A stretch of DNA of 64,000 bases from an uncultured candidate division WWE3 bacterium (GTDB lineage: Bacteria; Patescibacteriota; WWE3; UBA101185; UBA10185). Under the pieces are notes generated by a model. That model worked only from the letters and a program-made list of their open reading frames with translations. It had not been told where the DNA came from and ran no database searches. Within the stretch, counting starts at the first letter, position 1. Every line of letters starts with the position of its first letter. Shown piece by piece: positions 1 through 35,378 of this stretch. The stretch spans positions 32,505-96,504 of the forward strand of contig CAIRNR010000006.1 in assembly GCA_903879985.1 (NCBI GenBank). Direction: 5' to 3'. The translations under genes and the position numbers were made by a program.

Positions 1-2
1 GA

Positions 3-494: not shown

Positions 495-2596
495 CATATA
501 TAAAGCAGTCCTTATAATACTTGCGCAATACGTTTTATTTTTTTATCCGATTTTTTTACCACACAATATTTTAACTGGTTCATTTACTACAGATGCACTG
601 AGTTTGCACTATCCTTCACGGGCATTTTTATACGAAAAACTTCACCATGGCACACAGTTTTTTTGGACCGAAAGAATATATGGCGGTTTTCCTGTTTATA
701 CCGATTTGGAGCGCGGTTTTTTAAATCCCATAAATATTTTGTCGCTTTATTTATTTGATCCGTATACGTCTTACAAGGTTATTCACTTTATATATTATTT
801 TATTGGCGCGGTTTTCCTATATTTATTTTTAAAAGAAAAAAAGCTTGGGTTGATTGCCTTTGCTGTAGCGAACTTGATTTTCTTCTTTTCCTTTTACAGC
901 ATGGTACGGCAAGAACTATTTAATACTGTGCTTATTGTGTACCTGTTACCCGTGGGATTATATCTTTCGGAGAAACTTATAAATACACAAAAACAACGCT
1001 ACGCAATATTAAAAGGTGTGTGGCTTTGGGCAATGATTTCGTGGGGACAGTTTAACTTTATAACCATACTTTTAATGATTGACGGGCTGTATCTACTTAT
1101 ATATTCGTACAAAACACTTAAAGTAAAACACTTCTTCGCTAATTTAGGGTTAATTGGATTAACCGCAACTATATTATGTTTGCCGTTATTATATCCATTC
1201 CTAAATGTATTTCTGGCAGGTGCTAGAGGTGGGGGAGACTTAAATTATTTAGAAGGATCTTATTCGCCAATTGTGGCTCTAACAAATCTTTTTCCATTTA
1301 TATGGGGAATACCCAACAATTACGTTGGCGACTTGATTAAAAACGGATATTACTTAAACGAGGTTTATAACTATTTAGGAATTTCTTCGGTAATATTGGC
1401 GACACTTGCTTTTTTATTGCTAAAAAAAAACAAAGGACAAAATATTTTTTGCTGTCTTAATAAGCATATATGTTTGTTTAGCGTTTATAAGATACGTGCC
1501 AATACTAAACAACGTAAACATACCTTTGATATCTTCATTTAGGTATTGGGGCAGAGCGTCATTGTTGCTCACATTTTCTTGTGCATACTTAGCCGCATTT
1601 GGTGTTGAAGAGCTAGGAAAATTAAAACTGCAGATTAAAAATCTAATATATTTAGCACCAGCAGGAATTATTTATTTAGGAATCACGCTTGCTAATTTAA
1701 ATAATATCGAAACTACAAAAACTCTTTCTTTTATGTTGCATGGAGGCATTGCTAAGGATTATGTTTTATATGCTTATTTGGGCATAACAGCTATAGTGCT
1801 GGCCGTTAGCATCTTTGCGATTATCAAAAAAACCAACAGCTCTACAATCAAACTAATATTAGCAATAGTCATCTGCCTGGATTTATTCGTGCCGGCAACC
1901 CAATTAACAAAATCATACTATGTAACGAAACAAAACTTTGAACAAAATATTAAGCTCGGTTTAGATAAATATAAAAACGAACGCATAATATTTTTAGACG
2001 ATAAGAAAATATTTGGTAACACCATGATGTATCAACAAAGCTGGGGAATGTTTGGATATAGCGCGCCACTTGAATCTACAAACTATATCAGTTATATAAA
2101 TTCTCTTGGTTTTGATAGCGTCCGAAGACCAAAACTGGATACGTCTCCTGAATTATGGAATCAATCGCAGATTTACAATTTATCTCACGCAGGCATAACA
2201 ACGATAATTAAAAAAGACGGCAAGGTTTTTCCACTGCGTGACACAAACGTTTTAGACATTTTGCAAAATACAAGCCCCGATGTAGCAGCACAATATCTAG
2301 CAAAGGAAGAAGGCAACGTTACATTAGCAATTAACACAAAAGGAATACGTCAGATTCAAACATCAATAAGAAATTACCAAGGTTGGCAGCTATATATAAA
2401 TGGCGTCCGCCAAAACTTTATAAGTAAACCAACTGATTTATTTTTAAAATTCGAAGTCCAAACAGGGAACAGTGTTGTGGAACTTAAATATATACCGGTA
2501 GGTTTTTACAAAGGCTTATATTATTCACTATGTTTGTTGATTGTTAGCGCAATATCCTACCTAATTTACCGTGATAAAATAAGAACGAATGCATAA
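487..2596 (+). pseudogene. YfhO-like polytopic membrane glycosyltransferase-family protein, split by a +1 frameshift in an A9 tract (1422-1430)
   Basis: ORFs 487..1542 and 1496..2596 are both highly hydrophobic multi-TM proteins, and the second ends in a soluble domain plus a final TM. Deleting one A from the A9 run joins frame 1 to frame 2 as ...LLKKTKDKIFFAVLISIYVCLAFIRYVPIL..., whereas the present frame-1 tail (NKGQNIFCCLNKHICLF...) looks non-native. Confidence 0.5.
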
Positions 2597-4085
2597 ATTC
2601 CTCAAAAATAACTGGAAACTAAAACTGGTTATATTCATAATTTCTTTGACTTTGTTTTTATATAAACTGGATTACACCTCAATCTTCACGGATGAAGTAG
2701 TGTACTGGGACGCGGGACGAAATTACATACTCAAAAATGAAGTAATAGCTAATTTACAACACCCGCTAATAGCAAAATATATAGCAGGGCTTGCGTCGTT
2801 ACCACAAGAAAACAATATATTTTTAATTCGTTTACCATTTGCAGTAATGGGAGCCATGGCAAGCGTTGTAGTTTTTGCAATCGCCGCTGAGTGGCTATCT
2901 GTTGGGTGGGCACTTTTTGCGTGCTTATTATATTTAACCTACCCATTTATCTTTTCGTCGGAACGCATGGCCATGATGGAAGCACCAATGCATTTATTCT
3001 GGTTACTGTTTAACTTATTCTTTTTGAAATATTTAAAAAGCAAATCGAAAAAAGACGTTATAATTTCAGGCGTTTTTTTGGGTTTAAGTTTGGCAACAAA
3101 ATTTACGTCCATCACGCTAATTCCATTTATTCCACTGGCAATCCTTTTATATTGTTATTTAAACAAACAGAAATTAAGCGAATACAAAAATATCTTTCTT
3201 ATTATTTTGCCGGCTATAATTGTTTTTGGACTTTCTTACACTCAACTTATTTTCAAACGAGGTTTTTATTTTGCAATTACCGATGTATTAAGAGCGAATA
3301 AAGATATTATCTTTGACAGAAACAGCGAAGGTAAAATTCATATTATCGGTAACAAGATTTACACCAAATCACCATGGTGGTTCTATTTTTATTACATATA
3401 CCAAGCATATTCGATTCCACAGATAATACTTACGATAGCAGCAACTTTAACAAACTTTTTTAAGAAAACATTCTTTGGTGCGTATTGGGGATTATTTTTG
3501 TTATTAAACGCCGTTTTGTTTTTTAACATGGGTTTGAAGAACGCGAGATACATTGGTTCTATGGAAATCGCATTAGTATTTTTGGTAGCCGCAGGTTCAA
3601 AGATATTACTGGAAAACATAAAAGTCCGCTGGGTAAGAATACTTTTTATCTCAGTTGTAATAGCCACAGTAATACTCCGCGTGTCTAATATTATTTCGAT
3701 GGAACCAACTTCATACAACGCGCTTAAAAATTACTTAATCAAAGAAACAAATAACTTCACAACAGGGGATCGTACATTTGCTTACGGTTCCATAAATAGC
3801 GGAAGGTGGACATTTAGAGAATACCAACAATATCAAAACTCACCGGTGTTATTTAGAAAAGACTTTGAACTCCGCTGCGACTTTGCCGACTTTAAATATA
3901 TAGTCTTTGATGACGTAGAACTTATAAAAGTTCAAGACAACGAGCTTTATAATTATATAAATGCTAACCGCGAACTTTACACCGAAGTACCAATGTCGGG
4001 TTTGACCTTATTTAAGAAAAAAGATAACGTCGCACCACTGGTGGATTCAAGCTGTTATCTACTGCCAAACAAGGGTTTTAACTAA
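2589..4085 (+). CDS. GT-C fold membrane glycosyltransferase (PMT/ArnT-like, GT39/83-type)
   Basis: Multi-TM protein with the DE-motif FTDEVVYWDAGRNY in the first extracytoplasmic loop. It overlaps the upstream gene by 8 nt (ATGCATAA), consistent with an operon. Confidence 0.5.
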   Translation: MHKFLKNNWKLKLVIFIISLTLFLYKLDYTSIFTDEVVYWDAGRNYILKNEVIANLQHPLIAKYIAGLASLPQENNIFLIRLPFAVMGAMASVVVFAIAAEWLSVGWALFACLLYLTYPFIFSSERMAMMEAPMHLFWLLFNLFFLKYLKSKSKKDVIISGVFLGLSLATKFTSITLIPFIPLAILLYCYLNKQKLSEYKNIFLIILPAIIVFGLSYTQLIFKRGFYFAITDVLRANKDIIFDRNSEGKIHIIGNKIYTKSPWWFYFYYIYQAYSIPQIILTIAATLTNFFKKTFFGAYWGLFLLLNAVLFFNMGLKNARYIGSMEIALVFLVAAGSKILLENIKVRWVRILFISVVIATVILRVSNIISMEPTSYNALKNYLIKETNNFTTGDRTFAYGSINSGRWTFREYQQYQNSPVLFRKDFELRCDFADFKYIVFDDVELIKVQDNELYNYINANRELYTEVPMSGLTLFKKKDNVAPLVDSSCYLLPNKGFN

Positions 4086-4136
4086 AACCCTCACAGTCTA
4101 GCAATCCAACCAGGTTCGTGCTAATATTTACAAACT

Positions 4137-5027
4137 ATGCAAACAAAAGTAGAAAAAACACCAAAAGCTACCATTAAACTCACCGTAACGGTTGAGGCGG
4201 ATAAAGTTAAAGAAGCCTATGAAAAGGTTCTGGATAAAGCCGTTGCTGAAACCACAATCCAAGGTTTTAGAATAGGTACAGCTCCAAAAGAGTTGGTAAA
4301 AGACAAAGTCGGCACCGATACTTTGTATGGTGATGCCGTCAATATCATTTTACAAACCTTTTACCCACAGGCACTTAAGGAAAACTTAATAATGCCAATT
4401 TCCAATCCTCATGTAGAAATTAAGGAATTTAGTTTAGATAAAGACTTTGAATTCACTGCAACAGTCGCAACAATGCCCGAAGTTAAAATGCAAGAATATA
4501 AAGAAGAGTTAAAAAAACGTTACGCCGCTAAAATTGAAGAAGCAAAAAAGAACTTAAAAGAAGGCGAAGAACTTCACGTACATATTGGACCAAACGAAAT
4601 AATTGAGACTTTAATGGAAAAATCAGAGGTTGAATTTTCTGATTTATTATTAGAAGAAGAAACCGAAAGATTGTTATCCAGATTAGTTAACCAAGCACAA
4701 TCCATCGGTTTATCCGTAGAACAATACTTAAAATCACAAAACAAAACACCAGAAGAATTACACAGTGATTATCAAAAAATTGCTGAACGTAACTTAAAAG
4801 CCGAGTTTGTATTGGCCCATTTGGTAAAAACCGAAAAAGTCGAAGTTTCCGACGAAGAAATCCAAGAAGCTATAGCCGCAGTATCCAGTGAAGAACAAAA
4901 ATCCTTATTAGACGACAAAACTCAGATGATTTATGTAAAAAGTATCTTGCAGAAAAATAAATTAATTACTAAATTAATTGAAGAGACAGAAGGTGAAAAC
5001 CACCATGAACATGAACATAAAGAATGA
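4137..5027 (+). CDS. tig: Trigger factor, short form apparently lacking the FKBP/PPIase domain, with a His-rich tail
   Basis: The N-terminus MQTKVEKTPKATIKLTVTVEADKV...IQGFRIGTAPKELV matches the trigger-factor ribosome-binding domain. It lies in the classic tig-clpP arrangement. The C-terminus is ENHHEHEHKE. Confidence 0.6.
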   Translation: MQTKVEKTPKATIKLTVTVEADKVKEAYEKVLDKAVAETTIQGFRIGTAPKELVKDKVGTDTLYGDAVNIILQTFYPQALKENLIMPISNPHVEIKEFSLDKDFEFTATVATMPEVKMQEYKEELKKRYAAKIEEAKKNLKEGEELHVHIGPNEIIETLMEKSEVEFSDLLLEEETERLLSRLVNQAQSIGLSVEQYLKSQNKTPEELHSDYQKIAERNLKAEFVLAHLVKTEKVEVSDEEIQEAIAAVSSEEQKSLLDDKTQMIYVKSILQKNKLITKLIEETEGENHHEHEHKE

Positions 5028-5037
5028 AAAAAATAAT

Positions 5038-5634
5038 ATGAAAAATCAATTAGTTCCTATAGTCGTAGAAAAAGAAGCAAACGGAATGGAAAGATCTTAC
5101 GATATCTATTCACGTCTTTTACGCGACTACGTAGTATTTGTTACAGGCCCAATCGATATGGGAGTAGCAAACACTTTTATAGCACAACTATTATTCTTAG
5201 AAAGCCAAGATCCCGACAGAGATATTAGTGTTTACATCAATAGTCCAGGCGGAGACGCTTATGCAGGACTTGCCATGTACGACACAATGAAACACGTTAA
5301 AAACGATATCGTCGCCATAAACGTAGGACTTGCCGCATCAGCCGGAGCTTTAATATTAGCCGCAGGTACAAAAGGTAAAAAGTACGCACTTCCAAGTTCA
5401 TTCACAATGATCCACCAAGTATTGGGCGGAGTTGAAGGCCAAGCAACAGAAGTTGAAATTACAGCAAGACACATGTTAAAACTTAGAGAGCTTTATGCGG
5501 AATGCCTAGCCAACGGAACAGGCCAAAGCGTAGAAAAAGTTAAAAAAGATATAGACCGCGATTACTGGATGGACGCAAAAGAGTCGTTGGAATACGGTAT
5601 TATCGATAAGATTATGACTCCTAAGAAGAAGTAA
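5038..5634 (+). CDS. clpP: ATP-dependent Clp protease proteolytic subunit
   Basis: ERSYDIYSRLLRDYVVFVTGPID...YINSPGG...MIHQVLGG motifs. An alternative start is ATG 5005, which has an upstream AAGGTG and overlaps the tig 3' end. Confidence 0.85.
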   Translation: MKNQLVPIVVEKEANGMERSYDIYSRLLRDYVVFVTGPIDMGVANTFIAQLLFLESQDPDRDISVYINSPGGDAYAGLAMYDTMKHVKNDIVAINVGLAASAGALILAAGTKGKKYALPSSFTMIHQVLGGVEGQATEVEITARHMLKLRELYAECLANGTGQSVEKVKKDIDRDYWMDAKESLEYGIIDKIMTPKKK

Positions 5635-5831: not shown

Positions 5832-5948
5832 TGAATTAATTATAGGGTCAGTTATTTCCACTTTATCTTTTACTAACCACAAGTCGGCTTGTCGCTATAA
5901 TATAATTGTTCTACCAGAATCACTCCTATATAGGCAGAGAGCAACGTT

Positions 5949-5961
5949 ACTAGGTATAATC
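5949..5961 (+). promoter_or_regulatory. Promoter-like -10 (AGGTATAAT) upstream of the first island gene
   Basis: ttactaggtataatc lies about 8 nt before ATG 5969. A second TATAAT occurs at about 5897. Confidence 0.25.
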
Positions 5962-5968
5962 TAATCAA

Positions 5969-6490
5969 ATGAAAACTTTAACAACCAACACAACTGAACT
6001 AGATAAAAACTCCATATCCCTCGCAGGAGAATTTGCCGTTCTTTCCCAATTAGCACTACGAGGATACGACGCAAATTTAACTCTTGGGCATACAAAAGGT
6101 GTTGATATTCTTATCTCTAATCCTAAAACAAATAAAATGTTTAAAATGGAGGTTAAAACCTCCTATAAAAATGTTCCTACGACATATAAATTATTTGGTC
6201 ATTGTTTAGCCTGGGTAATGGGAGAGAAAAACGAAAATATAGCCGATCAAAATTTATTCTACTGCTTTGTTAATATAGAACATCCTGATTATAAATTCCG
6301 ATTCTTCATAATACCAAGTGCTGTGGTAGCAAAATATGTGAAAGAGCAGCATCAATATTGGATTTCAACAAGGACAGAAGATGTTGAAACTACAACAATG
6401 CGCCAATTTAGAATCGGACTGGAAGAAACGAAATACAACATAGATACGCCATTAGCAAGAGACTACGAAGATATGTGGGACCTTAGTTAG
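5969..6490 (+). CDS. Hypothetical protein with a YraN/Hjc-like PD-(D/E)XK nuclease signature
   Basis: GEFAVLSQLALRGYDANLTLGHTKGVDILIS...MFKMEVKTS reproduces the UPF0102/Holliday-junction-resolvase pattern GE..A..L..GY...D-I/L...hEVKt. Confidence 0.35.
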   Translation: MKTLTTNTTELDKNSISLAGEFAVLSQLALRGYDANLTLGHTKGVDILISNPKTNKMFKMEVKTSYKNVPTTYKLFGHCLAWVMGEKNENIADQNLFYCFVNIEHPDYKFRFFIIPSAVVAKYVKEQHQYWISTRTEDVETTTMRQFRIGLEETKYNIDTPLARDYEDMWDLS

Positions 6491-6580
6491 TAAAACAGTA
6501 ATAATCAGATACTCCCTAACACATTCTTCAGATAATTTAACTTCATATAAAGCCCAAAAGAAAAGGAATACAATTTAACT

Positions 6581-6778
6581 GTGAAAATAACCTTCCAAAT
6601 CGATCCTCAATACGACTACGATATGGTGTTACATATGTTGCGAGGAAAAGATTGGCAAAATAGGGCTAAACGCATGGGTTTAGATTTCTCTTTGGTTGAA
6701 AAAATTAATCAGGCAACCGGCACCGATATGTGTATTTTACTACAGACTAATCCTGCACAAAAAGGCAGCTATATCTAA
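6581..6778 (+). CDS. Hypothetical small protein
   Basis: ORF only; no recognisable motif. Confidence 0.2.
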   Translation: MKITFQIDPQYDYDMVLHMLRGKDWQNRAKRMGLDFSLVEKINQATGTDMCILLQTNPAQKGSYI

Positions 6779-6812
6779 TTATTTATACTAAAGATATCCG
6801 TTAACTCATGTT

Positions 6813-7616
6813 TTGTTGCCAGATGACACAAACCCCACTATAGACTATCCTATAATCAACATGTCCGAATACTACAACAACCAAAGAACACCAAAAAACT
6901 GCTACACAAAAGGCCAAACCGAACCATTTAAACTAAGCCGCTCCAAAATAGACAGCTTCCTCAAATGCCCCCGCTGCTTCTACATCGACCGCGTACTAGG
7001 CACAGGACAACCTCCGGGATTTCCATTTGCATTAAACAGTGCGGTAGACCATCTATTAAAACTAGAATTCGATATTCATAGGGCAGCTGGCTCAAAACAC
7101 CCACTAATCGAAAAATATGGTGTTGATGCAATACCTGCAGCTCACAAAGACTTAAATATATGGCGTGAAAACTTTAAAGGCGTTCAATTTCTACACAAAC
7201 CAACAAATTTATATGTATTTGGAGCCATAGATGACCTCTGGATCAACTCTAAAGGCGAATACATAGTTGTAGACTACAAATCCACAAGTAAGGACGAAGA
7301 AATAACAACATTAAATAAAGATTGGCAGGACGGCTATAAAAGACAAATGGAGGTTTATCAATGGTTGCTAAGACAAAATGGTTATAAGGTTTCGGAGACC
7401 GGTTACTTTGTATATTGTAACGGCGACACCGACAAAGCTGCCTTTGATGCAAAACTTGAGTTTGATATTACCTTGATTCCTTATGTTGGGGATGATAGTT
7501 GGATTGAAAAGGTTCTATTTGATATTAAAAAGTGCTTGGAGTCGGATGTGTTACCGGCCAGCGGTGAGGATTGTGATTATTGCGCATATTTTTATGCTAG
7601 GAAGGGACACGAATGA
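6813..7616 (+). CDS. Cas4-like / RecB-family PD-(D/E)XK nuclease with four Cys (probable Fe-S cluster)
   Basis: N-terminal CPRC, GAIDDLWINSKGEYIVVDYKS (D...E-hDYK), RQMEVYQWLL (QxxxY) and C-terminal CDYCAY. A possible internal start is MSEYYNN at 6861. Confidence 0.6.
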   Translation: MLPDDTNPTIDYPIINMSEYYNNQRTPKNCYTKGQTEPFKLSRSKIDSFLKCPRCFYIDRVLGTGQPPGFPFALNSAVDHLLKLEFDIHRAAGSKHPLIEKYGVDAIPAAHKDLNIWRENFKGVQFLHKPTNLYVFGAIDDLWINSKGEYIVVDYKSTSKDEEITTLNKDWQDGYKRQMEVYQWLLRQNGYKVSETGYFVYCNGDTDKAAFDAKLEFDITLIPYVGDDSWIEKVLFDIKKCLESDVLPASGEDCDYCAYFYARKGHE

Positions 7617-8759: not shown

Positions 8760-9686
8760 ATGAAAAATTATTATAGAGTAATGTTAGGTCAAAAAAGCAT
8801 TTATGCTAAAGAAGCCTTTGAGGGTAACTTTATTGGAGCAGGATGGTTAGAAGATATTGATTTTACACATAAATTTCCGGATAACTGGCGCGAATTTAAC
8901 AAAAAATACATTCCTATCTACATAGAAGAGAACCCAGATAAAACAAAAGTTGCAGCCGGATTGGCCTGTGGGATGCTCTATACAATAACTAAAGGTATTC
9001 TTGTGGGTGATATTGTTTTATGTCCAGATGGTAAAGGAAACTACCTTGTAGGTGAAGTAATAGGTGAATATGAATATTTTAAGGGTGCGAATTTACCACA
9101 TAGACGAAAAGTTAGATGGTATCAAGATACGCTATCTCGAGATGAAATAAGTGAATCACTTAAGAATTCCGCTGGAAGCATTGGTACATTAAGTAATATT
9201 TCCAAATACGGAGCCGAAATTGAAGCTTTAATTTCGGGTAACCGTCCAGCTTCCATAATCTCTACGGACGAAACAATAGAAGATCCAAGCCTTTTTGCAC
9301 TTGAAAAACACTTAGAAGACTTTTTGGTACAAAATTGGCACCACACGGAACTTGGGCAACACTACGATATTTATTCAGAAGACGGAGAAATAGTAGGTCA
9401 ACAATACCCAAGCGACACCGGTCCAATTGACATTTTAGCTATAAGTAAAGATAAAAAAGAAATCCTTGTTGTAGAACTTAAAAAGGGAAGAGTAAGTGAT
9501 GTTGTAGTAGGTCAAATTCAAAGATACATGGGTTATGTTAAAGATGAATTAGCTGAAGAGAACCAAACAGTTAAAGGGGTTATTATAGGCTTTGAAGATG
9601 ATGTAAAGATACACAGAGCGTTATCTGTTGCACCCAACATTGATTTTTATACATATAAGATTCATTTTAAGTTAGAGAAAAAGTAA
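8760..9686 (+). CDS. Two-domain protein: N-terminal possibly PUA/EVE-like domain plus a C-terminal NucS/DUF91-like PD-(D/E)XK nuclease domain
   Basis: The C-terminus LEKHLEDFLVQNWHHTELGQHYDIYSEDGEIVGQQYPSDTGPIDILAISKDKKEILVVELKKGRVSDVVVGQIQRYMGYV fits E...D(IDIL)...ELK...Q..RY. The N-terminus has GAGW...ILVGDIVLCPDGKGNYLVGEVIGEYEY, which suggests a PUA-like fold. Confidence 0.5.
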   Translation: MKNYYRVMLGQKSIYAKEAFEGNFIGAGWLEDIDFTHKFPDNWREFNKKYIPIYIEENPDKTKVAAGLACGMLYTITKGILVGDIVLCPDGKGNYLVGEVIGEYEYFKGANLPHRRKVRWYQDTLSRDEISESLKNSAGSIGTLSNISKYGAEIEALISGNRPASIISTDETIEDPSLFALEKHLEDFLVQNWHHTELGQHYDIYSEDGEIVGQQYPSDTGPIDILAISKDKKEILVVELKKGRVSDVVVGQIQRYMGYVKDELAEENQTVKGVIIGFEDDVKIHRALSVAPNIDFYTYKIHFKLEKK

Positions 9687-9759
9687 TTATGGTGGATAAC
9701 GATGTCAGCTTGCTTAATATAAGAAATTTCAGAAATCATTTGGTATATAATGAAGCAGC

Positions 9760-10899
9760 ATGTTAGAAAACAATATTATCAACTCATTTAATGAATTTTT
9801 AACTTACTACGACGCATCCTCAAAGGATGAGCTTTGGAAAAATCAAAGCATAATTTTCCATAATTACTGGACAAGCAAAATCTTAAACAACAGTGATGAA
9901 TTAAACGACTTCGAAACTGATGAAATTGTTAAAATATTAGACAGAAACGGAAAAGGTAATACACACTCTAGTGATGCCATAGCCAAGGCTATGATACCTC
10001 AAGGCGCCTGGAGAAGGATGTTTAATGAAATTAAAAGCGAAGCTAGACTAAAGGAATTATTGAACAATATCTTCTCTGAAAACGATAACTCCAAGAAAAT
10101 TGAATATGTAAATCAATTATATAAATACAACGAAAAAAATAGAAATAGCCTAACAGGTAATAGCGGTACAGCAATAAATTGTATGGTTGCAGCTTGGGAC
10201 CCATTTAAAAACATAAGTGCTGTTTCTCTCAAGCATAGAAAGAAAATTTTTGAATTTCTGCAACTATCGGGGCTTGATTTTGATGAAGATACTCAAGGAA
10301 AAAAGATTGTAGTATCCAACGAACTAATATTAGGTTTTTTTGAAAACAAGGGCATAACAGCATCGGCAAGAACAATTTCTGCCTTCCTCTACAGTGACCC
10401 CATTAAAAAATTATGGGAAATAGACACAGGTGACGAAATTGTTCCTTATACAGAAGAAATACCCATATCCGAAACTGAGGGAACGACAAATCCTTCAATA
10501 TTTTATATGGAAAGCCAACTTGAGGATTTCATTATAGAAAACTGGGACAATACAGAATTAGGTAAAAGTTACGATTTGATTGAAGAAGAGGGTGAAATTG
10601 TAAGCCAACAATATCGCACACCAATAGGCATAATTGATATATTAGTTAAAGAAAAGAAAACAGACCGCTATGTCGTGATTGAACTAAAGAGGGATCAAAC
10701 TAGCGACTCTACTGTAGGTCAGTTAGCACGATACATGGGTTGGATTGAAGAAAATAAAGGCAAAGGCTTGCCACCCAAAGGTATCATCATCACTGCCAAA
10801 TATGACGAGAAATTGTTTTATGCACTTAAAAAAATCAAGGACACCGAAATTTATTTATACGAGGTTAAGTTTAAATTAAACGAATTCAAAAAATCCTAA
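9760..10899 (+). CDS. Two-domain protein: unknown N-terminal domain plus a C-terminal NucS/DUF91-like PD-(D/E)XK nuclease domain (paralog of the previous gene's C-terminus)
   Basis: MESQLEDFIIENWDNTELGKSYDLIEEEGEIVSQQYRTPIGIIDILVKEKKTDRYVVIELKRDQTSDSTVGQLARYMGWI aligns motif-for-motif with the C-terminus of 8760..9686. Confidence 0.5.
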   Translation: MLENNIINSFNEFLTYYDASSKDELWKNQSIIFHNYWTSKILNNSDELNDFETDEIVKILDRNGKGNTHSSDAIAKAMIPQGAWRRMFNEIKSEARLKELLNNIFSENDNSKKIEYVNQLYKYNEKNRNSLTGNSGTAINCMVAAWDPFKNISAVSLKHRKKIFEFLQLSGLDFDEDTQGKKIVVSNELILGFFENKGITASARTISAFLYSDPIKKLWEIDTGDEIVPYTEEIPISETEGTTNPSIFYMESQLEDFIIENWDNTELGKSYDLIEEEGEIVSQQYRTPIGIIDILVKEKKTDRYVVIELKRDQTSDSTVGQLARYMGWIEENKGKGLPPKGIIITAKYDEKLFYALKKIKDTEIYLYEVKFKLNEFKKS

Positions 10900-11024
10900 G
10901 AAACTTTAAAATTTAGTTACAACCATTTATAGATCCGTAAAACAGCATAATCAATGTAATTTTCTTATTCCAATGCTACCATTACTAGTATCGCTAATTG
11001 TTTTGTACACAATAGGATCACTTT

Positions 11025-12140
11025 ATGGCCATAGTGTATAACCAAATAGGTTCATTAACTGAGTTATTAAACAGATGTAGAGAAAAAGGGATTACATTCG
11101 ACTCCATGGAGCAGGTAGAGGAATTTTTAAACAGCTACCATGAAAATATAAAAGTCGCCGCCGAAAAAGCAGAAGAAAACTTCAATAAAACCATAGGAGA
11201 GGCTAACAACACACTGAATATCGCCGTGGAAAATTATGAGGTAGAAAAGAAAGCTATAGTTGCTTTAATTGATAACAAATTAGCAGCTTTGTCTGTTGCA
11301 ATAGCTACGTCACAAAGTACCACCACAAATCCTATTAGCAAAATATTGAATAATCTACGTGTTAATAAATATACACAGGCGCGAGTCAAACTAGAAAACA
11401 ATTATGATGCTGAAATCGAAAAACATCTTAAAATATTCACTGAAGAAATCAACAATGCAAGATCAGACCTTAACTATAAACTTATTAATCACGATATCTT
11501 GACCACTAAATATAAAGACGACTACATAAACAAGCTACAGCATACTTATGAAATTTTAATGGAAAATGGTGCTTTCCTTTACGGTGCTAAAGGCGAACAC
11601 ATGGCCTTAATAGAGCTTAAAAAACTCCCTGACACATATACTGTTATTAACAATGCCTGCTTCAACTTTCGACCGGGAATTCATGATAAAGGAAACAATG
11701 ATTGGATATATTCCGCACAAATTGATCACGTTGTAGTAGGACCAACAGGTATTTTTCTTATAGAAACTAAGAATTGGCGCCAAGAATCTACAACCAATAA
11801 AGATTTCTTTTCTCCGGTTAAACAAATTAATCGCTCGGGACTTGCTATATACGTGCGTCTAAATAATGCAATTAAAGATGGATATTTAATAAGCTTCAAC
11901 ATTCAGTGGGGGACACAAAAGATAACCATGAAAAAGTTGGTATTATTAACAGGTTACAGTCAAAGCGACGAATACGATTTTGTTAAATTAGTAACATTAA
12001 GGGATTTAAGATCGTATATTACTTACGGTAAACTCGTTTATAACGAGACACAAATTAAGGATATTGTGAGGTTCTTTCGTGAAGAGGGCTACGGGAATAA
12101 TACTTCAAGGTCAATCGGAATGGGCGATTTTAGGAGGTGA
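11025..12140 (+). CDS. NERD (nuclease-related domain) protein with an N-terminal coiled-coil
   Basis: GAKGEHMALIELKKLPDTYTVINNACF...QIDHVVVGPTGIFLIETKNW matches the NERD signature G.KGE...L..L......V.N.......IDHVVV...GIF.IE.K. Confidence 0.55.
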   Translation: MAIVYNQIGSLTELLNRCREKGITFDSMEQVEEFLNSYHENIKVAAEKAEENFNKTIGEANNTLNIAVENYEVEKKAIVALIDNKLAALSVAIATSQSTTTNPISKILNNLRVNKYTQARVKLENNYDAEIEKHLKIFTEEINNARSDLNYKLINHDILTTKYKDDYINKLQHTYEILMENGAFLYGAKGEHMALIELKKLPDTYTVINNACFNFRPGIHDKGNNDWIYSAQIDHVVVGPTGIFLIETKNWRQESTTNKDFFSPVKQINRSGLAIYVRLNNAIKDGYLISFNIQWGTQKITMKKLVLLTGYSQSDEYDFVKLVTLRDLRSYITYGKLVYNETQIKDIVRFFREEGYGNNTSRSIGMGDFRR

Positions 12141-12234
12141 TAAAGTAGAATAAATACAGCCCTGCTCCCTAAACTTTATAACGATTATTGAAAAAATTGC
12201 GGAATACACTGAAACAAGAAATTCACTTGCAGAA

Positions 12235-12546
12235 TTGTTACTTAAAGGAATTTTTGTTGGTGTAGTTGAAGATATATGCAGAGGAACATTCACTATAGAA
12301 AAGCTAAAAGAAAATCGATACGTATCATCACGTTTCGTTAAAAAGTGGGAAACTATTTCAAGAGAGTATACCTGTAACCCTAAGATTTCAATTCCATACG
12401 AGGTTAAGGAATTAATCAACCAACAGGCTGAAGTTACTACTTTAAACGACAATATTTTTAAGGATTTTTATGTTACTGAAGAACTTCTTGAAAAACGCAC
12501 TAAACACTTGGTAACGATAAGCTACTATCTACATCTTGCTATGTAA
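12235..12546 (+). CDS. Hypothetical small protein (weak)
   Basis: ORF only; an ORF on the opposite strand overlaps it. Confidence 0.15.
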   Translation: MLLKGIFVGVVEDICRGTFTIEKLKENRYVSSRFVKKWETISREYTCNPKISIPYEVKELINQQAEVTTLNDNIFKDFYVTEELLEKRTKHLVTISYYLHLAM

Positions 12547-12588
12547 TACAGACGCATCCCACGTGAAAAACTATAATCTGGTAAAACT

Positions 12589-13206
12589 CTAATTCATTAC
12601 CTCTGCTTCAAAATAAACCTGCTTCTTGCATTTATCGCATAAAACAAGCCAACCCATTCTCCCGGCCAATTTCCACCAAGTCCAATCGGGACTCTTAAAA
12701 TAAATCACATCAAGTGAATCTAATCCTCTATTACAACCAGTACATTTTATGTCTTTGTGTTTTGGATCATTTTTAAAATCGTCTGCAGTTCTATAAACAT
12801 GCTTTGACGATTTTTCGTTTAGACAAGCAGAAACATCAGGCCATGGAAAAAATACGGTGTGATCGTAATCCTTATATTTAATGGCTTCCTTTTCATAGAA
12901 TTCTTTTATCTGTTTTTCGTCATGGGCTTTTGCTAACTGGCGCTGGTTTTTTTCCTCTTCCCAGGATTTTATAAAACTGGTTACACCTTCTGCGGTTACC
13001 AATACTTCCCTTGGTTTATTTCCACGAGACGGTCCAACAAACCCAGCTTCTTCCATTTCATCGATAATCCTGGCAGCTCGTGCGGATCCTATCGAGAGTT
13101 TTCTTACTAAAAGGTTTGGAGAAGCTTTTGCTGCGGAAACAACTATATTTAAGGCTAAATCGAATAACTCATCATAAGCATCAAACATGGAGTAATTATA
13201 GTACAA
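12589..13206 (-). CDS. FtsK-gamma-like winged-helix domain protein with a C-terminal Zn-ribbon (CxxC...CxxC)
   Basis: DELFDLALNIVVSAAKASPNLLVRKLSIGSARAARIIDEMEEAGFVGPSRGNKPREVLVT closely resembles the FtsK gamma (KOPS-binding) domain. The C-terminus has CTGCN...CDKCKK. Confidence 0.5.
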   Translation of the reverse strand: MYYNYSMFDAYDELFDLALNIVVSAAKASPNLLVRKLSIGSARAARIIDEMEEAGFVGPSRGNKPREVLVTAEGVTSFIKSWEEEKNQRQLAKAHDEKQIKEFYEKEAIKYKDYDHTVFFPWPDVSACLNEKSSKHVYRTADDFKNDPKHKDIKCTGCNRGLDSLDVIYFKSPDWTWWKLAGRMGWLVLCDKCKKQVYFEAEVMN

Positions 13207-13227: not shown

Positions 13228-13779
13228 TTAATTAGCCGACGTAGCCTTTTTAGCATTATACTCAACAGCAAACTGACTAAACTTCTCTCTGATACTTTTC
13301 ATATCGTATATTCCTAAATCCCATGAATCAAGCCCTCTTGCGTAGACTACATAGTTTGGATATTTCGTATTAAATTTTAGGTTACCATTCATTGGGTCTA
13401 CACCCCACCATTCATCTTTTATAAAACATTCAGCAAAAACATGTCCTCCGACTCTATCAGGATTGTCTGAAAAATAAGATTTAGAGATTACTTCAACATA
13501 CTTTGTGGGTATACCTTTGGCCCGTGCAATAGCTACAAACACAAGAGCAAAATCGGTGCAGCCAGTTGCAAAACCATCGTTTATTATTTGATCTGCGGTT
13601 CTTGTTCTAAAGATATCGTTTTTTTCAATACCATCTGGAGCAGGGTATTTAATATTTTTATTAACCCAGCGTAAAGCTTTAACAACAAATTCGAAATCAG
13701 TAACTTCAATAGAGTTAACTATTTCTGTAATTTTTGGTGTTATTTCAGTTTGTTTTCCTGCCTTTAAAAAGTTTTCCAT
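13228..13779 (-). CDS. Transglutaminase-like superfamily cysteine peptidase-like protein
   Basis: GCTDFALVFVAIARAKGIPTKYV...GGHVFAECF...WWGVDP gives a Cys-His-Asp arrangement. The N-terminal MENFLKAGKQTE is shared with the next gene. Confidence 0.5.
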   Translation of the reverse strand: MENFLKAGKQTEITPKITEIVNSIEVTDFEFVVKALRWVNKNIKYPAPDGIEKNDIFRTRTADQIINDGFATGCTDFALVFVAIARAKGIPTKYVEVISKSYFSDNPDRVGGHVFAECFIKDEWWGVDPMNGNLKFNTKYPNYVVYARGLDSWDLGIYDMKSIREKFSQFAVEYNAKKATSAN

Positions 13780-13794
13780 AGCAGCAGTTTAGCC
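13743..13794 (-). repeat. 52-bp repeat copy A: 15 nt of 5'-UTR plus the first 37 nt of the CDS
   Basis: tttcAgtttgttttcctgcctttaaaaagtTttccatagcagcagtttagcc is near-identical (2 mismatches) to 14316..14367. Confidence 0.8.
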
Positions 13795-13841
13795 TATACT
13801 AAATAGTTCGAATATCCCAACAGGAATCTTACCAAGAAAAC

Positions 13842-14351
13842 CTAATTCTCTTTGAAACACTTAGCCATCTCGACCATTTCAATCTTTTCGTTATCCAAAG
13901 GAAACTCAATACTCTTAACTTTTTTAAAACCAAGGGACTCGTAAAAGGGAACAGCGTTTAAGGTTGCAAATAAAGAAATCTTTTCTTTGCGGTTATTTAT
14001 AAAGTCTCTCTCAATAAAAGAGTATAGAAACTTTCCATAACCTTTACCTTGAAAACTTGGATCTATTTGGATTTGATAAAGCTCTTCGCCGTCAAGGTCA
14101 TATTGGCAAAATCCAACAGTGCTGTTTGCTTCCTTTAGGACAAGCCACTTAGTGTTGCTAAACTGATCTAACACATTTTTTTCGTTTATTTGGTTTACCC
14201 ATTCTTTGACAACGTTTTCTGAGTAAGTTTTTGAATTAGTTTTTAAGATACAGTCTTTGTGAATGTTAACAATATCAGCAACGTCTTCTTTGGTTGCTTC
14301 TAAAAGATTGACCATTTCGGTTTGTTTTCCTGCCTTTAAAAAGTCTTCCAT
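13842..14351 (-). CDS. GNAT family N-acetyltransferase
   Basis: QIDPSFQGKGYGKFLY...LNAVPFYESLGFK acetyl-CoA binding motifs. The N-terminus MEDFLKAGKQTEM is shared with the previous gene. Confidence 0.6.
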   Translation of the reverse strand: MEDFLKAGKQTEMVNLLEATKEDVADIVNIHKDCILKTNSKTYSENVVKEWVNQINEKNVLDQFSNTKWLVLKEANSTVGFCQYDLDGEELYQIQIDPSFQGKGYGKFLYSFIERDFINNRKEKISLFATLNAVPFYESLGFKKVKSIEFPLDNEKIEMVEMAKCFKEN

Positions 14352-14367
14352 AGCAGCAGTTTAGCCC
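14316..14367 (-). repeat. 52-bp repeat copy B: 15 nt of 5'-UTR plus the first 37 nt of the CDS
   Basis: See copy A. Confidence 0.8.
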
Positions 14368-14485
14368 AAAGTCGCGGGTGTGTAAAAACCAAGACATGCA
14401 AACCGCACTGCTGGTTTGGAATACTAGCCAATACATGCTATAACTACGCCAACAAATCGAAACAATAGAGAGGAGAAAAAATACT

Positions 14486-15820
14486 ATGGACACGCTGAAG
14501 CCCAAAGATTGGCTTTTTCTTATTCCATTTCCAAACCAACCGTTTTTCTTGCTATACGCTCCCTTGCATGGCCTGGTAACAAAGTTATCTCCAGCAGGAG
14601 CTGAACAGCTGCAAAATTTGCTAGATACTGTTTCGGCTGGTGGTAGTAAAGCGGAATTTAACCCAGTTATGGTCAAGTTTCTTACAGATAATAATTTACT
14701 GTCGCTTCCGGCACACTGGGCTATACCCAATAAAGTATTGCCGGGTGAACAAGGAATTACGGTATCTTTGACCAATGACTGTAATCTTCGCTGTATTTAC
14801 TGCTACGCGGGGGCCGGTTGCGATACGATGACAATTCCCTATGACGTAGCAAAGAACGCAATAATTTATGGTTTGCGTTTAGCAAAGGCACGTGGAAGAG
14901 CCCATTTTAGGCTAACATTCCACGGGGGCGGTGAATCACTAAAGCGCAAAGATCTGCTCAAAAAATGTATCATTTTTGCACTGAAAGAAGCTAAGGCGCT
15001 TGGGCTAACGTTGCATGTGAGCATTGTAACTAATGCAACGCTTATTTCTGAAAGTTTTGCACGGTGGTTAAAAGCACACAGCGTTGATAACATCACCGTT
15101 TCACTAGATGGTGTAGCACCGGTACAGGATTTACAACGCCCTCTGGTAAACGGTAAAGGATCGTTTAAAGCCGCCATGTTGGGAATATCTAACCTCAAAA
15201 AAGTTGGCTTAGATTTCTCTATTCGTGCGACTGTTACCAGAAAGAGTGTGGAGGAAATGCCGAATTTTGTAAGATTCCTTGCACACGAAGTTCTTAATGG
15301 TGTAAACGGACTCGTACATTTCGAGCCTTTATCACTTTGTGGAAAGGCACGTGGAGCTACCCATTTAGACGTTGATCCGCAGCTCTTTGTAAAATATTAC
15401 ACTGAAGCGCGCAAGGTCGGGTTAGAGCTGGGTATTCGCATTGTCTGCACGTTAGATACTTTCCGCAAGGATAAATTGCAATTCTGTGGAGCAAGTACAG
15501 GTACCATGTTTTGTGTATGTCCGGATGGTTCCATTTCAGGGTGCTCGCGCGTTACAAAAAAGCAAGATCCCGGCGCGGAGTTGTTTTTCTATGGCAAATT
15601 CAAACCCGCCATAAAGCAACCTGAAATAGACCAAGATGCACAAGCACTTATAGCAAAACATGGTCAATTACCTGAAAAGCTATGTTCAACATGCTTCGCA
15701 AGGTGGAATTGCCAAGGATTCTGTCCGATTTCAAGATTCCTGGGCGAAGATACCTTTCAAGAGTCTTGTATAATTGTGAAGCAGATGCTTCTACAAGACA
15801 TGTTGTTAGAATTCTTATAG
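14486..15820 (+). CDS. Radical SAM / SPASM-domain peptide maturase
   Basis: CNLRCIYCYA (CxxxCxxC), GGGE-like HGGGESL, and a C-terminal Cys cluster CSTCFARWNCQGFCP (SPASM/twitch). Confidence 0.8.
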   Translation: MDTLKPKDWLFLIPFPNQPFFLLYAPLHGLVTKLSPAGAEQLQNLLDTVSAGGSKAEFNPVMVKFLTDNNLLSLPAHWAIPNKVLPGEQGITVSLTNDCNLRCIYCYAGAGCDTMTIPYDVAKNAIIYGLRLAKARGRAHFRLTFHGGGESLKRKDLLKKCIIFALKEAKALGLTLHVSIVTNATLISESFARWLKAHSVDNITVSLDGVAPVQDLQRPLVNGKGSFKAAMLGISNLKKVGLDFSIRATVTRKSVEEMPNFVRFLAHEVLNGVNGLVHFEPLSLCGKARGATHLDVDPQLFVKYYTEARKVGLELGIRIVCTLDTFRKDKLQFCGASTGTMFCVCPDGSISGCSRVTKKQDPGAELFFYGKFKPAIKQPEIDQDAQALIAKHGQLPEKLCSTCFARWNCQGFCPISRFLGEDTFQESCIIVKQMLLQDMLLEFL

Positions 15821-15836
15821 AAAGGAGAAAATAACA

Positions 15837-16016
15837 ATGGGTACCGATTTCACGCAAGTTGTTCGATGGCAACCTCGGTTAGCTGTAAACGCAAACTGCT
15901 CAGCTGAGACATGTCCCTCTGATGGAAAATGCTCTTCAGATGACAGTTCCGGTCATTCTTGCAGCGGCAACACTAACGACCCGTGTCCGCACGACAGTTC
16001 CTGTCCAAAAGACTAA
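15837..16016 (+). CDS. 59-aa Cys-rich putative RiPP precursor peptide (not in the ORF track)
   Basis: An AAAGGAGAAAA RBS lies 6 nt before the ATG, immediately after the rSAM stop. It translates to MGTDFTQVVRWQPRLAVNANCSAETCPSDGKCSSDDSSGHSCSGNTNDPCPHDSSCPKD, with six Cys in C-x-x-(D/E/N) repeats. Confidence 0.55.
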   Translation: MGTDFTQVVRWQPRLAVNANCSAETCPSDGKCSSDDSSGHSCSGNTNDPCPHDSSCPKD

Positions 16017-16033
16017 CGACACCTGTCACAAAC

Positions 16034-16082
16034 AAAGGGACTACTTCTTATATACTTAGAAGTAGTCCCTTTACCTTTTTTT
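16034..16082. terminator. Rho-independent terminator between convergent genes
   Basis: Perfect 15-bp stem AAAGGGACTACTTCT / AGAAGTAGTCCCTTT with an 8-nt loop, followed by ACCTTTTTTT. Confidence 0.65.
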
Positions 16083-16101
16083 AATGAAAAATTGTGTTAA
16101 C

Positions 16102-16983
16102 TTAATATTTTATTTTATTGAGATAGTCTGTTGTCAATTTTTCGGGCTTATCTTTTTCCAAAACCTCTAAATACTTTGCAGGCAATAGCATATCTAAATC
16201 AGTTCCTACTAATGAATAATTCTGTATGTTTTCTTCTGAATGACTTAAATACACTACAAGTGCACGGATTATGGATTCCTCTACATAAGTACTTGGATCC
16301 GCGTATGATCCCAAAACTTCTTCTGGCATTTTTTTGAGATAATCAACTACATCTTCTGGAATGGTTAAGGTACATTTATCTAAATAGCTGTGAGTTAATT
16401 CGTGCAGTATTTGACTTAAATTTATTCCTTCTTTTTTCCATCCAACCATAATGTAATAACCATCTTTAGTTTTTATACATTTTCCTGATGTATCCCAATT
16501 TCTAGTTAAATAAAAAGTCTTAATATCAGGTTCGAAGTCGAAGTGATTTTTAAAAAGATTTTCTATATCACTAAAACGTTCTTCAAATTCGTTTAGGCGC
16601 TTATCAAAATCCGGTTCGTATTGTTTCCACAGATTTTGTAATTCCGGTAATAAAGATATTCGGTCAACATAATCTAAAACTTCTTTGGCAGGAAGCATAA
16701 ACTTACCGTTATCATCATAGCCAGCGGAGTTAAATATTCCCATAAGATAATGGTAGCTATGCATGGGCATATCCAGTTTTGGAGTTCCTGATTTCTCAAG
16801 TATTGCTACAACCTTATCTTTGAGTTCAGAAACCCAATCTTTGTAGCCAATAGTGCGATTATTAGCATAAAACATAGCACAGTACATGTGGAAATGTTTT
16901 TGTAACTTAACTGTTTTAAGTTCCATACCACCATGATACAACAAATGTGGGGTTTTGAACGATAAGCCCACCTCCGGCACCAA
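16102..16983 (-). CDS. Hypothetical HExxH zinc-metallopeptidase-like protein
   Basis: LHELTHSYLD motif; no other recognisable domain. Confidence 0.4.
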   Translation of the reverse strand: MVPEVGLSFKTPHLLYHGGMELKTVKLQKHFHMYCAMFYANNRTIGYKDWVSELKDKVVAILEKSGTPKLDMPMHSYHYLMGIFNSAGYDDNGKFMLPAKEVLDYVDRISLLPELQNLWKQYEPDFDKRLNEFEERFSDIENLFKNHFDFEPDIKTFYLTRNWDTSGKCIKTKDGYYIMVGWKKEGINLSQILHELTHSYLDKCTLTIPEDVVDYLKKMPEEVLGSYADPSTYVEESIIRALVVYLSHSEENIQNYSLVGTDLDMLLPAKYLEVLEKDKPEKLTTDYLNKIKY

Positions 16984-17000
16984 AATGCTAAACTACACGT

Positions 17001-17681
17001 ATGCTTAATCTAAATATTCAATATTCCTTAGAGAAAGATGCTGAAACTTACGTTAGCTACGTCTACCAATTTGAAGCTTTAGAACATGGCAGAGTAAACC
17101 CAAAAAAAGAATTACTCGAAAGACTTGATCAGGAATTACAAAATATTTTGGCTAACACAAAAGATAAGGAAACGGCATATACAGAGGTACTTTCTTACCT
17201 AACTAAAAAGAACTATGAAAACCCACAGTTGCTCAAAAATAGCATCAAAACCCTTGAAGACCGCTGGAACGCTGTAGGAAGCCAAGTAATTTATTCTTTA
17301 GAATTTTTATATAATAAACCCTTTCCGTTTGAAAACGTCACACTGTATTTAACAACCAATAATATATGTCCATATTCTTATGAAGATAAGTATTTCTTTG
17401 CAAACTACAAATATGCCTCAGAACAAATGGATATCGCAAAACATGAACTAAACCATTTTATGTTCTATTACTATTACGATTCATTAAGAAATAAACTGGA
17501 CTTAGAAAAATATGAGCTTCTTAAAGAAGCATTAACGCTTTTTTCAAGTCCTAACCAAACTGGAAAACCAAACGAACTTCCTTTAAGAAAGTTTTTTGAA
17601 ACAAAGTTATGGGCAAATCTTGATGAGGCTATTGCAGCTGGTTGTGATTTCCTATTAAAGTACTATCCTGAAGTCAAATAA
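17001..17681 (+). CDS. Hypothetical HExxH-motif protein
   Basis: AKHELNHFMF motif. Confidence 0.35.
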   Translation: MLNLNIQYSLEKDAETYVSYVYQFEALEHGRVNPKKELLERLDQELQNILANTKDKETAYTEVLSYLTKKNYENPQLLKNSIKTLEDRWNAVGSQVIYSLEFLYNKPFPFENVTLYLTTNNICPYSYEDKYFFANYKYASEQMDIAKHELNHFMFYYYYDSLRNKLDLEKYELLKEALTLFSSPNQTGKPNELPLRKFFETKLWANLDEAIAAGCDFLLKYYPEVK

Positions 17682-17782: not shown

Positions 17783-18163
17783 ATGCTCATATACAAATAC
17801 ATCGAAAACTACTTTGAAGATAATCCGGGTGCAGAAGCTTTCTGCGAGGAACACGACATAGTATATTTCACACCTACACCTGAGCGAAAAGCATGGCTTG
17901 AAAACTGGCTTAAAACTGCAAAACCTCCGATTATTGAATGTACGCCTGATGTTGTTTGCTATTGGAGATACTTTGGGGTTTGGGGAGAATATCACCCAAA
18001 CAATAATTCCATATCAATATGCCCAATTGAAATAGAAAAGGCCGGGGGTTTGGAGGAGGTTATTAGACACGAACTAGTGCACCTGCAACATCCTGAAGCT
18101 AACGATATGCCTCACGAGGAAAAAGAGGATTATATAAATAACGCAGGTAAAAGCAAAGAATAG
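17783..18163 (+). CDS. Small HExxH protein, SprT/WLM-like
   Basis: IRHELVHLQHPE is HExxH plus a downstream His, as in SprT-like domains. Confidence 0.35.
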   Translation: MLIYKYIENYFEDNPGAEAFCEEHDIVYFTPTPERKAWLENWLKTAKPPIIECTPDVVCYWRYFGVWGEYHPNNNSISICPIEIEKAGGLEEVIRHELVHLQHPEANDMPHEEKEDYINNAGKSKE

Positions 18164-34708: not shown

Positions 34709-34736
34709 ATTTAGAAATCTAAACTCGAATACATTT

Positions 34737-34767
34737 AAGGGTGCTGGGACAACAAACCAGCGCCCTT
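34737..34767 (+). terminator. Hairpin downstream of pilin 1 (weak T-tract)
   Basis: AAGGGTGCTGG...CCAGCGCCCTT with one G-U pair. Confidence 0.3.
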
Positions 34768-34849
34768 AATTATTCTCAGAAAAAATAAAGTTGACACTTG
34801 TTTTATACAGATCTATCCTTAACATAGTAAAAAAATTTTTCTATTTTAG

Positions 34850-35314: not shown

Positions 35315-35349
35315 ATACAAATATTAACTCACTTCCTACTGGATTTGAA

Positions 35350-35378
35350 TTGACATCTATCCCTTTAAGCCCTAGACT
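35350..35378 (+). promoter_or_regulatory. Sigma70-like promoter of pilin 3 (TTGACA-17-TAGACT)
   Basis: The hexamers were read directly from the sequence. Conserved 5'-UTR AGTAGATATTTTTTAAGGAG. Confidence 0.35.

Follow-up and report, generated by a model that had tools for sequence, protein, structure and literature searches.

The ranthipeptides are peptides that are ribosomally synthesised and then modified post-translationally (RiPPs); in them a thioether joins a cysteine sulfur to a carbon of the acceptor residue other than its alpha carbon. Among the radical S-adenosylmethionine (SAM) enzymes that carry a SPASM domain, PapB of Paenibacillus polymyxa (NF047865) forms Cys-Asp thioethers in PapA, the freyrasin precursor, and QhpD (TIGR03906) installs Cys-to-Asp/Glu thioethers on the QhpC subunit. 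CteB (TIGR03974) is the maturase of SCIFF peptides, and the CXXX-repeat targets (TIGR04115/TIGR04117) and FibroRumin (TIGR04135) combine period-4 Cys repeats with a SPASM radical SAM (rSAM) enzyme. Uncharacterised rSAM/SPASM peptide cassettes are common genome-mining finds. The cassette described here lies in a stretch of 64,000 nt (the window, to which coordinates refer unless a related locus is named) that is chromosomal DNA of a member of the Patescibacteria, probably of WWE3. It comprises a gene for an rSAM/SPASM maturase, a gene for a 59-residue precursor peptide directly downstream, and a convergent gene for a 274-residue HExxH protein. This is a conserved, genuine rSAM/SPASM RiPP cassette of an uncurated clade, which is set apart by a native CX2D unit, a new leader motif and a novel HExxH partner. 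We read it, with a probability of about 0.6, as a compact ranthipeptide-like cassette in which the maturase forms thioethers on the CxxD motifs of the precursor.

PapB and PapA provide the main comparison. Both systems pair an rSAM/SPASM enzyme with a precursor of repeated Cys...Asp motifs, in which the Asp is C-terminal to the Cys, and the model of leader-dependent docking on a RiPP recognition element (RRE) may apply to the present system too. PapB needs an acidic acceptor C-terminal to the Cys and fully cross-links motifs with one to five intervening residues (PMC9413430; PMC12373016). The present system differs from PapB/PapA in its VVxW leader motif, in the length of the enzyme (444 residues with an N-terminal extension, against a PapB model of 330 positions), in its host, a candidate-phyla-radiation bacterium, and in its additional conserved HExxH partner. 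An earlier sequence-only reading of the window had proposed the maturase and a thioether-bridged peptide; the convergent gene, the conserved leader motif and the nature of the host were not part of it.

The maturase and its precursor peptide

The maturase is assigned to the radical SAM superfamily by PF04055 (65.6 bits against a cut-off of 29.5), and its C-terminal 125 residues (320-444) are recognised by the SPASM model TIGR04085 (30 bits against 27); the Pfam SPASM model does not match the protein. The seven-Cys arrangement that defines SPASM domains, CX9-15GX4C ... CX2CX5CX3C ... C, is present as C334-x13-G348-x4-C353, C400-x2-C403-x5-C409-x3-C413 and C428. Across 39 homologues there is no variation at C99, C103, C106, C343, C353, C400, C403, C409 or C413, and almost none at C334 or C428. 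The best match in NCBIfam is PapB, at 122.9 bits against an equivalog cut-off of 340, which indicates that the enzyme is not a PapB orthologue. QhpD follows with 103.3 bits against 453, and this match (residues 32-231) includes part of the N-terminal region. PapB is also the top model for three diverse members of the clade (133-155 bits), with QhpD ranked second to fourth, and the SCIFF, RumMC and StsB models score 60-110 bits. The identical maturase is present on about 20 metagenomic contigs. A scan of metagenome contigs with the rSAM alignment, which captures generic rSAM patterns, returned distant enzymes only (at most 34% identity) and did not enrich the close clade.

The AlphaFold2 (AF2) model of the maturase is confident, with a predicted local distance difference test (pLDDT) score of 89. 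Foldseek aligns it over its full length with CteB (5wgg/5why; TM score ~0.7), the closest solved structure, whose RRE, rSAM and SPASM domains are all covered. In the model, the triosephosphate isomerase (TIM) barrel core is preceded by a module of three strands (residues 11-14, 21-25 and 30-34) and two helices (36-50 and 60-68). An RRE is a leader-binding winged helix with a three-stranded sheet and three helices, and the modelled module resembles such a peptide-binding domain; it is referred to here as RRE-like. CteB, like the window enzyme, is paired with a Cys-rich precursor of about 45-60 residues encoded next to it. The two enzymes nevertheless share only ~18-19% identity, the window enzyme reaches 75.9 bits against the CteB cut-off of 425, and the precursor has no SCIFF match and differs in core motif and leader.

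The gap between the maturase and peptide genes is short, which indicates that the two are transcribed together and that their expression is coupled; the spacing is similarly tight (13-20 nt) in the related loci L005-L009. The rSAM gene ending at 15820, the GGAG ribosome-binding site and the 59-codon open reading frame (ORF) beginning 17 nt further on had all been described in the sequence-only reading, and the coordinates and sequence are as quoted there. That the ORF is unannotated, as also claimed, does not hold, as the identical 59-residue product has already been called in the NCBI, JGI, ENA and Logan gene sets, only without a name. Homology searches with the peptide recover itself and one relative only, and Pfam and NCBIfam searches yield nothing (NCBIfam, E <= 1). 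To find orthologous peptides, it was necessary to read the sequence that follows the genes of rSAM homologues. An ORF of 53-55 codons follows the enzyme gene by 17-20 nt in L005, L006, L007 and L008, that is, in every locus with an rSAM protein 58-79% identical. Comparison of the orthologues gives pS values of 0.55-0.88, with synonymous sites near saturation, pN values of 0.07-0.34 and, where computable, dN/dS ratios of 0.05-0.29. The small ORF is a real gene under purifying selection, and the conservation that had been suggested as a check of the pairing is borne out.

The core of the window peptide contains CxxD at C26, C32, C50 and C56, together with C21xxE and C42xxN; the C56 unit (C56-P-K-D59) terminates at the C-terminal Asp, and this unit is C-terminal in 4/5 orthologues. 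The occurrence of D, E or N at +3 of all six core Cys, pointed out from the sequence, is confirmed as non-random when the core is shuffled 200,000 times (p = 5e-6). The result is p = 1.7e-4 for D or E (5/6 Cys) and p = 1.9e-3 for D alone (4/6), and no other offset from the core Cys is enriched in this test. Across the five orthologues, the leader positions F5, W11, Q12, P13 and L15 are invariant, as are the core residues C26, C32, G39-H40, C42, C50, P51 and C56 and the Asp that stands at +3 from C32, from C50 and from C56. C26xxD is kept in 4/5 orthologues, and C21xxE belongs to a 5-residue insertion found in the window sequence alone. The regularly spaced six-ring pattern proposed earlier is thus overstated, since only three CxxD units are conserved throughout and one more is kept in 4/5 orthologues.

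The pairing extends well beyond the orthologues. A Cys/Asp-rich ORF lies directly 3' of the enzyme gene in all ten loci with an rSAM protein at least 38% identical, and an adjacent Cys-rich ORF is found in 37/84 loci overall; the background frequency in control windows is 3.2%. The refuting case put forward earlier, homologues that lack such a neighbour, is thus not what is seen. L009, L010 and L168-L171, whose rSAM proteins are 38-44% identical, still have the small ORF after the enzyme gene, with the leader motif phi-V-V-x-W-(G/Q/D/N) recurring in the peptides. Features generally expected of a RiPP precursor/maturase pair, namely an adjacent conserved short ORF, a conserved leader and a core with a variable number of CxxD units, are all present. 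The L009 core is a C-x-x-D array (...CRQDCSFDCKSDCTNDCRNDC...) with D at +3 of 16/18 Cys, and in L010 this holds for 17/17 Cys. The search of homologues for CxxD periodicity that had been proposed thus finds 16-17 tandem units in relatives, and the number of units across the clade ranges from 3 to 17. Acidic residues occupy +3 of Cys in 20/30 cases in window-type peptides, where any other offset reaches at most 8/30, and in 63/85 cases in the other peptides of the clade; the corresponding values for +4 are 1/26 and 9/84. Because the relatives' cores are overt C-x-x-D arrays and acidic +3 residues are enriched clade-wide, the periodic CxxD pointed out earlier is the hallmark of the family. The array peptides have D at both -1 and +3 of Cys. 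In window-type peptides the units are set apart by spacers and enrichment is found at +3 rather than -1 (6/30), which identifies the unit as C-x-x-D rather than D-C.

Similar repeats characterise the CXXX-repeat and FibroRumin systems, to which the (CxxD)n peptides of L009, L010 and L171 may be compared. The peptide of one distant relative gives weak matches to the models of both (E ~0.007). The peptides, however, score 16 bits against cut-offs of 50 and 45, the enzymes 71-81 bits against 350, and the window peptide has no match; Asp at +3 is specific to the present family.

We also note two arrangements among other homologues. One Patescibacteria contig, L168, carries two convergent rSAM and Cys/Asp-peptide cassettes back to back (4001-5613 on the plus strand and 5861-7337 on the minus strand), adjoining a PRMT-like methyltransferase. 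The rSAM homologues of L015, L016, L018 and L048 (~30-32% identity), from Tepidisphaerales, Pirellulaceae, Cytophagia and Gammaproteobacteria metagenome-assembled genomes (MAGs), are followed by peptides of 116-125 residues with a DRP(N/D)DR leader and CSCNKVCTC-type Cys repeats, apparently a different and widespread precursor type.

Proposed chemistry and competing explanations

In the proposed mechanism, the rSAM and precursor genes would be co-transcribed up to a hairpin terminator, and the leader (FxQVVRWQPRL) would dock on the RRE-like N-terminal domain of the maturase. The [4Fe-4S] cluster of the rSAM core would cleave SAM to give a 5'-deoxyadenosyl radical, which would take the hydrogen alpha to the Asp side-chain carboxylate. 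A Cys thiolate positioned at the SPASM auxiliary cluster would then capture the resulting radical, affording a Cys-S to Asp-C-beta thioether by analogy with PapB and QhpD. The maturase is taken to act like the thioether synthases of PapB/QhpD type while lying outside every curated family. Three to four C-x-x-D rings would be formed, C32-D35, C50-D53, C56-D59 and usually C26-D29; in this putative ring map the fate of C21 and C42 is uncertain. A CX2D ring is chemically plausible because PapB completes CX1-5D motifs in vitro (PMC9413430). The 274-residue HExxH protein would be part of the system, most likely cutting off the leader and less likely tailoring the acidic core. The product would presumably be exported, and for an episymbiont it might serve in signalling, in competition or in the handling of metals.

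Several observations weigh against this proposal. The maturase reaches no curated NCBIfam cut-off, so that its chemistry is not transferable by orthology, and residues 1-90 match no Pfam or NCBIfam model and neither PqqD nor any RRE family. The native motif of PapA is CX3D, whereas it is CX2D in the window peptide and clade-wide. Among the links that SPASM enzymes introduce into Cys-rich peptides there are also C-alpha (sacti) links and others. The CxxD model does not account for every Cys, since C42 has N or K and no acidic residue at +3 across the orthologues, and the orthologues have an extra Cys at the position of window D36 with His at its +3. Finally, the HExxH gene aside, the cassette has no linked gene for a protease, a transporter or immunity.

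A first alternative retains the cassette and changes the bond. The product would be sactipeptide- or SCIFF-like, with sactionine (Cys-S to C-alpha) or non-Asp thioethers, and the role of the Asp residues would lie in recognition or solubility. CteB, closest among solved structures, is indeed a SCIFF maturase, the SCIFF, RumMC and StsB models do match at the scores given above, and C42 and the extra orthologue Cys have no acidic +3 partner. PapB is, however, consistently the best HMM (hidden Markov model) match, no feature of the cores is as well conserved clade-wide as an Asp at exactly +3, which every Cys in L010 has, and the peptides match neither SCIFF nor sactipeptide precursor models. We consider this alternative unlikely.

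A modification other than a thioether is unlikely as well. It could consist of C-C or C-O cross-links, epimerisation, modification of Asp or His, or Cys oxidation, and the HExxH protein would then be a ChlH-like alpha-ketoglutarate/Fe hydroxylase of Asp/His. The 274-residue protein has no sequence-family match to the alpha-ketoglutarate-dependent HExxH beta-hydroxylases (IPR026337-type). That the small protein is instead an unmodified, metallothionein-like metal binder or a QhpC-like enzyme subunit, with the adjacent rSAM enzyme maturing a protein cofactor, would accord with QhpD as second-best HMM match, with a peptide rich in the typical metal ligands Cys, His and Asp and with the lack of a linked exporter, but is very improbable, as no qhp-like dehydrogenase (qhpA, qhpB) or other enzyme subunit gene is conserved beside the cassette and the conserved leader, together with a core of 3-17 repeat units, is typical of RiPP precursors rather than of an enzyme subunit.

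The ranthipeptide-like reading is of interest for RiPP enzymology and for candidate-phyla-radiation biology, and introduces no new principle. Patescibacteria have tiny genomes with very few recognisable biosynthetic clusters; that such genomes keep a conserved, selected RiPP cassette suggests that its function is worth the genomic cost. The clade offers a natural CX2D enzyme/substrate pair for comparison with the much-engineered CX3D enzyme PapB, as well as tandem (CxxD)n substrates of up to 17 units. Among the papers searched for ranthipeptides and for SPASM or rSAM RiPPs from Patescibacteria or, more widely, the candidate phyla radiation, none describes this family, which is no proof that no description exists.

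The convergent HExxH protein

The gene for the 274-residue protein occupies the same place in L005-L010 (33-85% identity) and is absent from the L168-L171 branch. The family is extremely small: there are 14 homologues among 5.8 billion clustered proteins, and when 1.84 billion proteins were searched exhaustively with an HMM, 15 representatives were obtained. In addition to the HExxH motif, H56, H59, TRNWD141-145, SGKC147-150, C185 and E216 are invariant. The protein has no sequence match in Pfam, NCBIfam or the PDB. Its predicted structure is confident (pLDDT 88), and a Foldseek comparison of the model with the PDB gives no significant match.

Distant members of the family are found in comparable surroundings. 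One of them, P0140 of L172, is again convergent with a Cys/Asp-rich ORF of 63 residues. In L176, two distant members, one of which has lost the HExxH motif, occur in tandem amid small (DWD)n ORFs (MAKDWDDWDDWDDWDD...) and the beginning of a gene for an rSAM enzyme; the arrangement resembles a sister system that lacks Cys and is based on Trp/Asp repeats. The peptide neighbour in L172 and the (DWD)n and rSAM setting of L176 tie the 274-residue family to acidic precursors of rSAM-dependent RiPPs. A further family member, in L174, adjoins a stand-alone ORF of 67 residues (78-281, minus strand; ..YLVYAPEHKVLFAVNEAGAKAFLAL..) that resembles the N-terminal peptide-binding-like domain of the window maturase.

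An invariant HExxH motif on a putative zincin-like fold, together with the genetic tie to an rSAM-RiPP cassette with an Asp-rich core, likens the 274-residue protein to two kinds of enzyme, the zincin leader peptidases and the alpha-ketoglutarate-dependent tailoring enzymes ChlH, BpmH and PflC/PosC. A tailoring oxygenase of ChlH type has been described (PMC12636437). The favoured role of the 274-residue protein is that of a putative leader peptidase, and tailoring of the acidic core, for example as a ChlH-type oxygenase, appears less likely. It represents a rare HExxH family, structurally confident and functionally unassigned, whose genetic tie is to RiPPs with acidic cores.

A more far-reaching version of the ranthipeptide-like reading is tentative and, on balance, doubtful. 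The cassette would represent an undescribed, Patescibacteria-centred RiPP family with 3-17 four-residue C-x-x-D thioether rings, a ring size unknown in natural ranthipeptides. The HExxH proteins, obligate partners in one branch, would form a new metalloenzyme family, perhaps with metal bound at a His2Cys site, and would act specifically on acidic peptides modified by rSAM enzymes, among them the (DWD)n peptides of the sister branch. Ultra-small episymbionts have very few specialised metabolites, of which the product would be one; it might have a part in interaction with the host or in capturing metal.

Two more genes for proteins with HExxH-type motifs follow the cassette (Table 1). Homologues of the second, the 126-residue HELVH protein, occur near the cassette in L006 (7559-7870) and L008 (2203-2568), and the gene may be a loosely linked accessory.

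Expression signals and genomic setting

The positions of the features are collected in Table 1. The perfect 15-bp-stem terminator that had been recognised after the peptide gene is well supported by folding: the free energy of the hairpin is -25.5 kcal/mol (z = -6.06), and 0/200 shuffled sequences fold as well. A consensus terminator scanner overlooked the hairpin owing to its loop limit of 8 nt. Since the peptide and HExxH genes converge on the hairpin, transcripts arriving from either side may end there. A scan for sigma-70 promoters found no plus-strand site upstream of the rSAM gene, and an Rfam scan of 13700-17100 gave only chance-level matches, with no riboswitch or other RNA.

Table 1. 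Positions of the cassette, its signals and flanking features in the window; the last line refers to a related locus
Feature	Nucleotides	Residues	Strand	Remarks
Transglutaminase-like gene	13228-13779		-	adjacent to GNAT gene
GNAT gene	13842-14351		-	adjacent to transglutaminase-like gene
Antisense ORF	14275-14775			overlaps conserved rSAM start; assumed non-coding
Radical-SAM/SPASM peptide maturase, 444 aa	14486-15820		+	stop TAG 15818-15820
RRE-like N-terminal domain of maturase		~1-85		AF2 model
rSAM core motif CNLRCIYC (CX3CX2C)	14780-14803	99-106	+	read from sequence
SPASM domain	15485-15769	~334-428	+	TIGR04085, conserved Cys
CSTCFARWNCQGFC (CX2CX5CX3C)	15683-15724	400-413	+	read from sequence
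Intergenic spacer, 16 nt, AAAGGAGAAAATAACA	15821-15836		+	read from sequence
Shine-Dalgarno GGAG	15824-15827		+	9 nt before ATG at 15837
Precursor peptide gene, 59 codons, MGTDFTQVVRWQPRLAVNANCSAETCPSDGKCSSDDSSGHSCSGNTNDPCPHDSSCPKD	15837-16016		+	ATG 15837
Leader, MGTDFTQVVRWQPRLAVNAN	15837-15896	1-20	+	conserved F-x-Q-V-V-R-W-Q-P-R-L
Core, CSAETCPSDGKCSSDDSSGHSCSGNTNDPCPHDSSCPKD, and stop codon	15897-16016	21-59	+	six Cys
Intrinsic terminator hairpin	16034-16072		.	15-bp perfect stem, 9-nt loop; then ACC and T7 (16076-16082)
Conserved partner, 274 aa, putatively zincin-like HExxH protein	16102-16926		-	convergent with peptide gene
HELTH motif of 274-aa protein	16390-16404	175-179	-	invariant H175-E176-x-x-H179
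226-aa protein with HELNH	17001-17681			just beyond cassette
126-aa protein with HELVH	17783-18163			weak M76 and SprT matches
L176: 274-aa family members, (DWD)n ORFs, rSAM gene start	1464-1631, 4170-4328, 1621-3374, 4694-5161		+, -, +, +	related locus

An origin of the window from a phage or plasmid was rejected, because it carries genes for threonyl-tRNA synthetase (ThrRS), PBP1, RecG, a histidine kinase and a PilB-type ATPase. The nearest cassette-bearing genomes are MAGs of candidate division WWE3 and other Patescibacteria. Of the horizontal acquisition that had been suggested from a raised GC content, part stands. The rSAM gene (GC 0.435; third-position GC 0.39 against ~0.31) and the peptide gene (0.50) are indeed elevated over the window gene mean of 0.371 (sd 0.035), whereas the HExxH gene is at 0.324 and no mobile-element boundaries are found in the window. 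The flanks of the cassette are dissimilar in every related locus, and in L007 a large serine recombinase (2625-3932; Resolvase, Recombinase and Zn_ribbon_recom domains) immediately adjoins the three-gene cassette, which hints that the cassette is able to travel on mobile DNA. With variable flanks, the L007 recombinase and a raised GC content in two of the three cassette genes only, lateral mobility is plausible, if undemonstrated, and weakly indicated. The ABC transporter at 48193 was rejected as a dedicated exporter, in agreement with the view that it is too distant: 32 kb separate it from the cassette, and the related loci have no conserved transporter.

The neighbours of the cassette encode GNAT, transglutaminase-like, FtsK-gamma and HExxH proteins. 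A 53-nt direct repeat (13742-13794 and 14314-14366; 96% identical) spans the 5' untranslated region and the first 13 codons of the transglutaminase-like and GNAT genes, and both proteins begin with ME[N/D]FLKAGKQTE; the repeat may represent an expression signal or N-terminal tag that the two genes have in common, or else a scar of recombination. Further upstream, the region 8760-13206 encodes NucS/YhcG-like nuclease-domain proteins, a NERD-domain protein and the FtsK-gamma-domain protein; in appearance it is less a part of the core genome than an island, variable or of defence type. We also note three tandem ORFs of 154 residues each at 34244-35875, in a region with a type II/IV secretion ATPase gene (28613-30277), which are possibly paralogous pilins.

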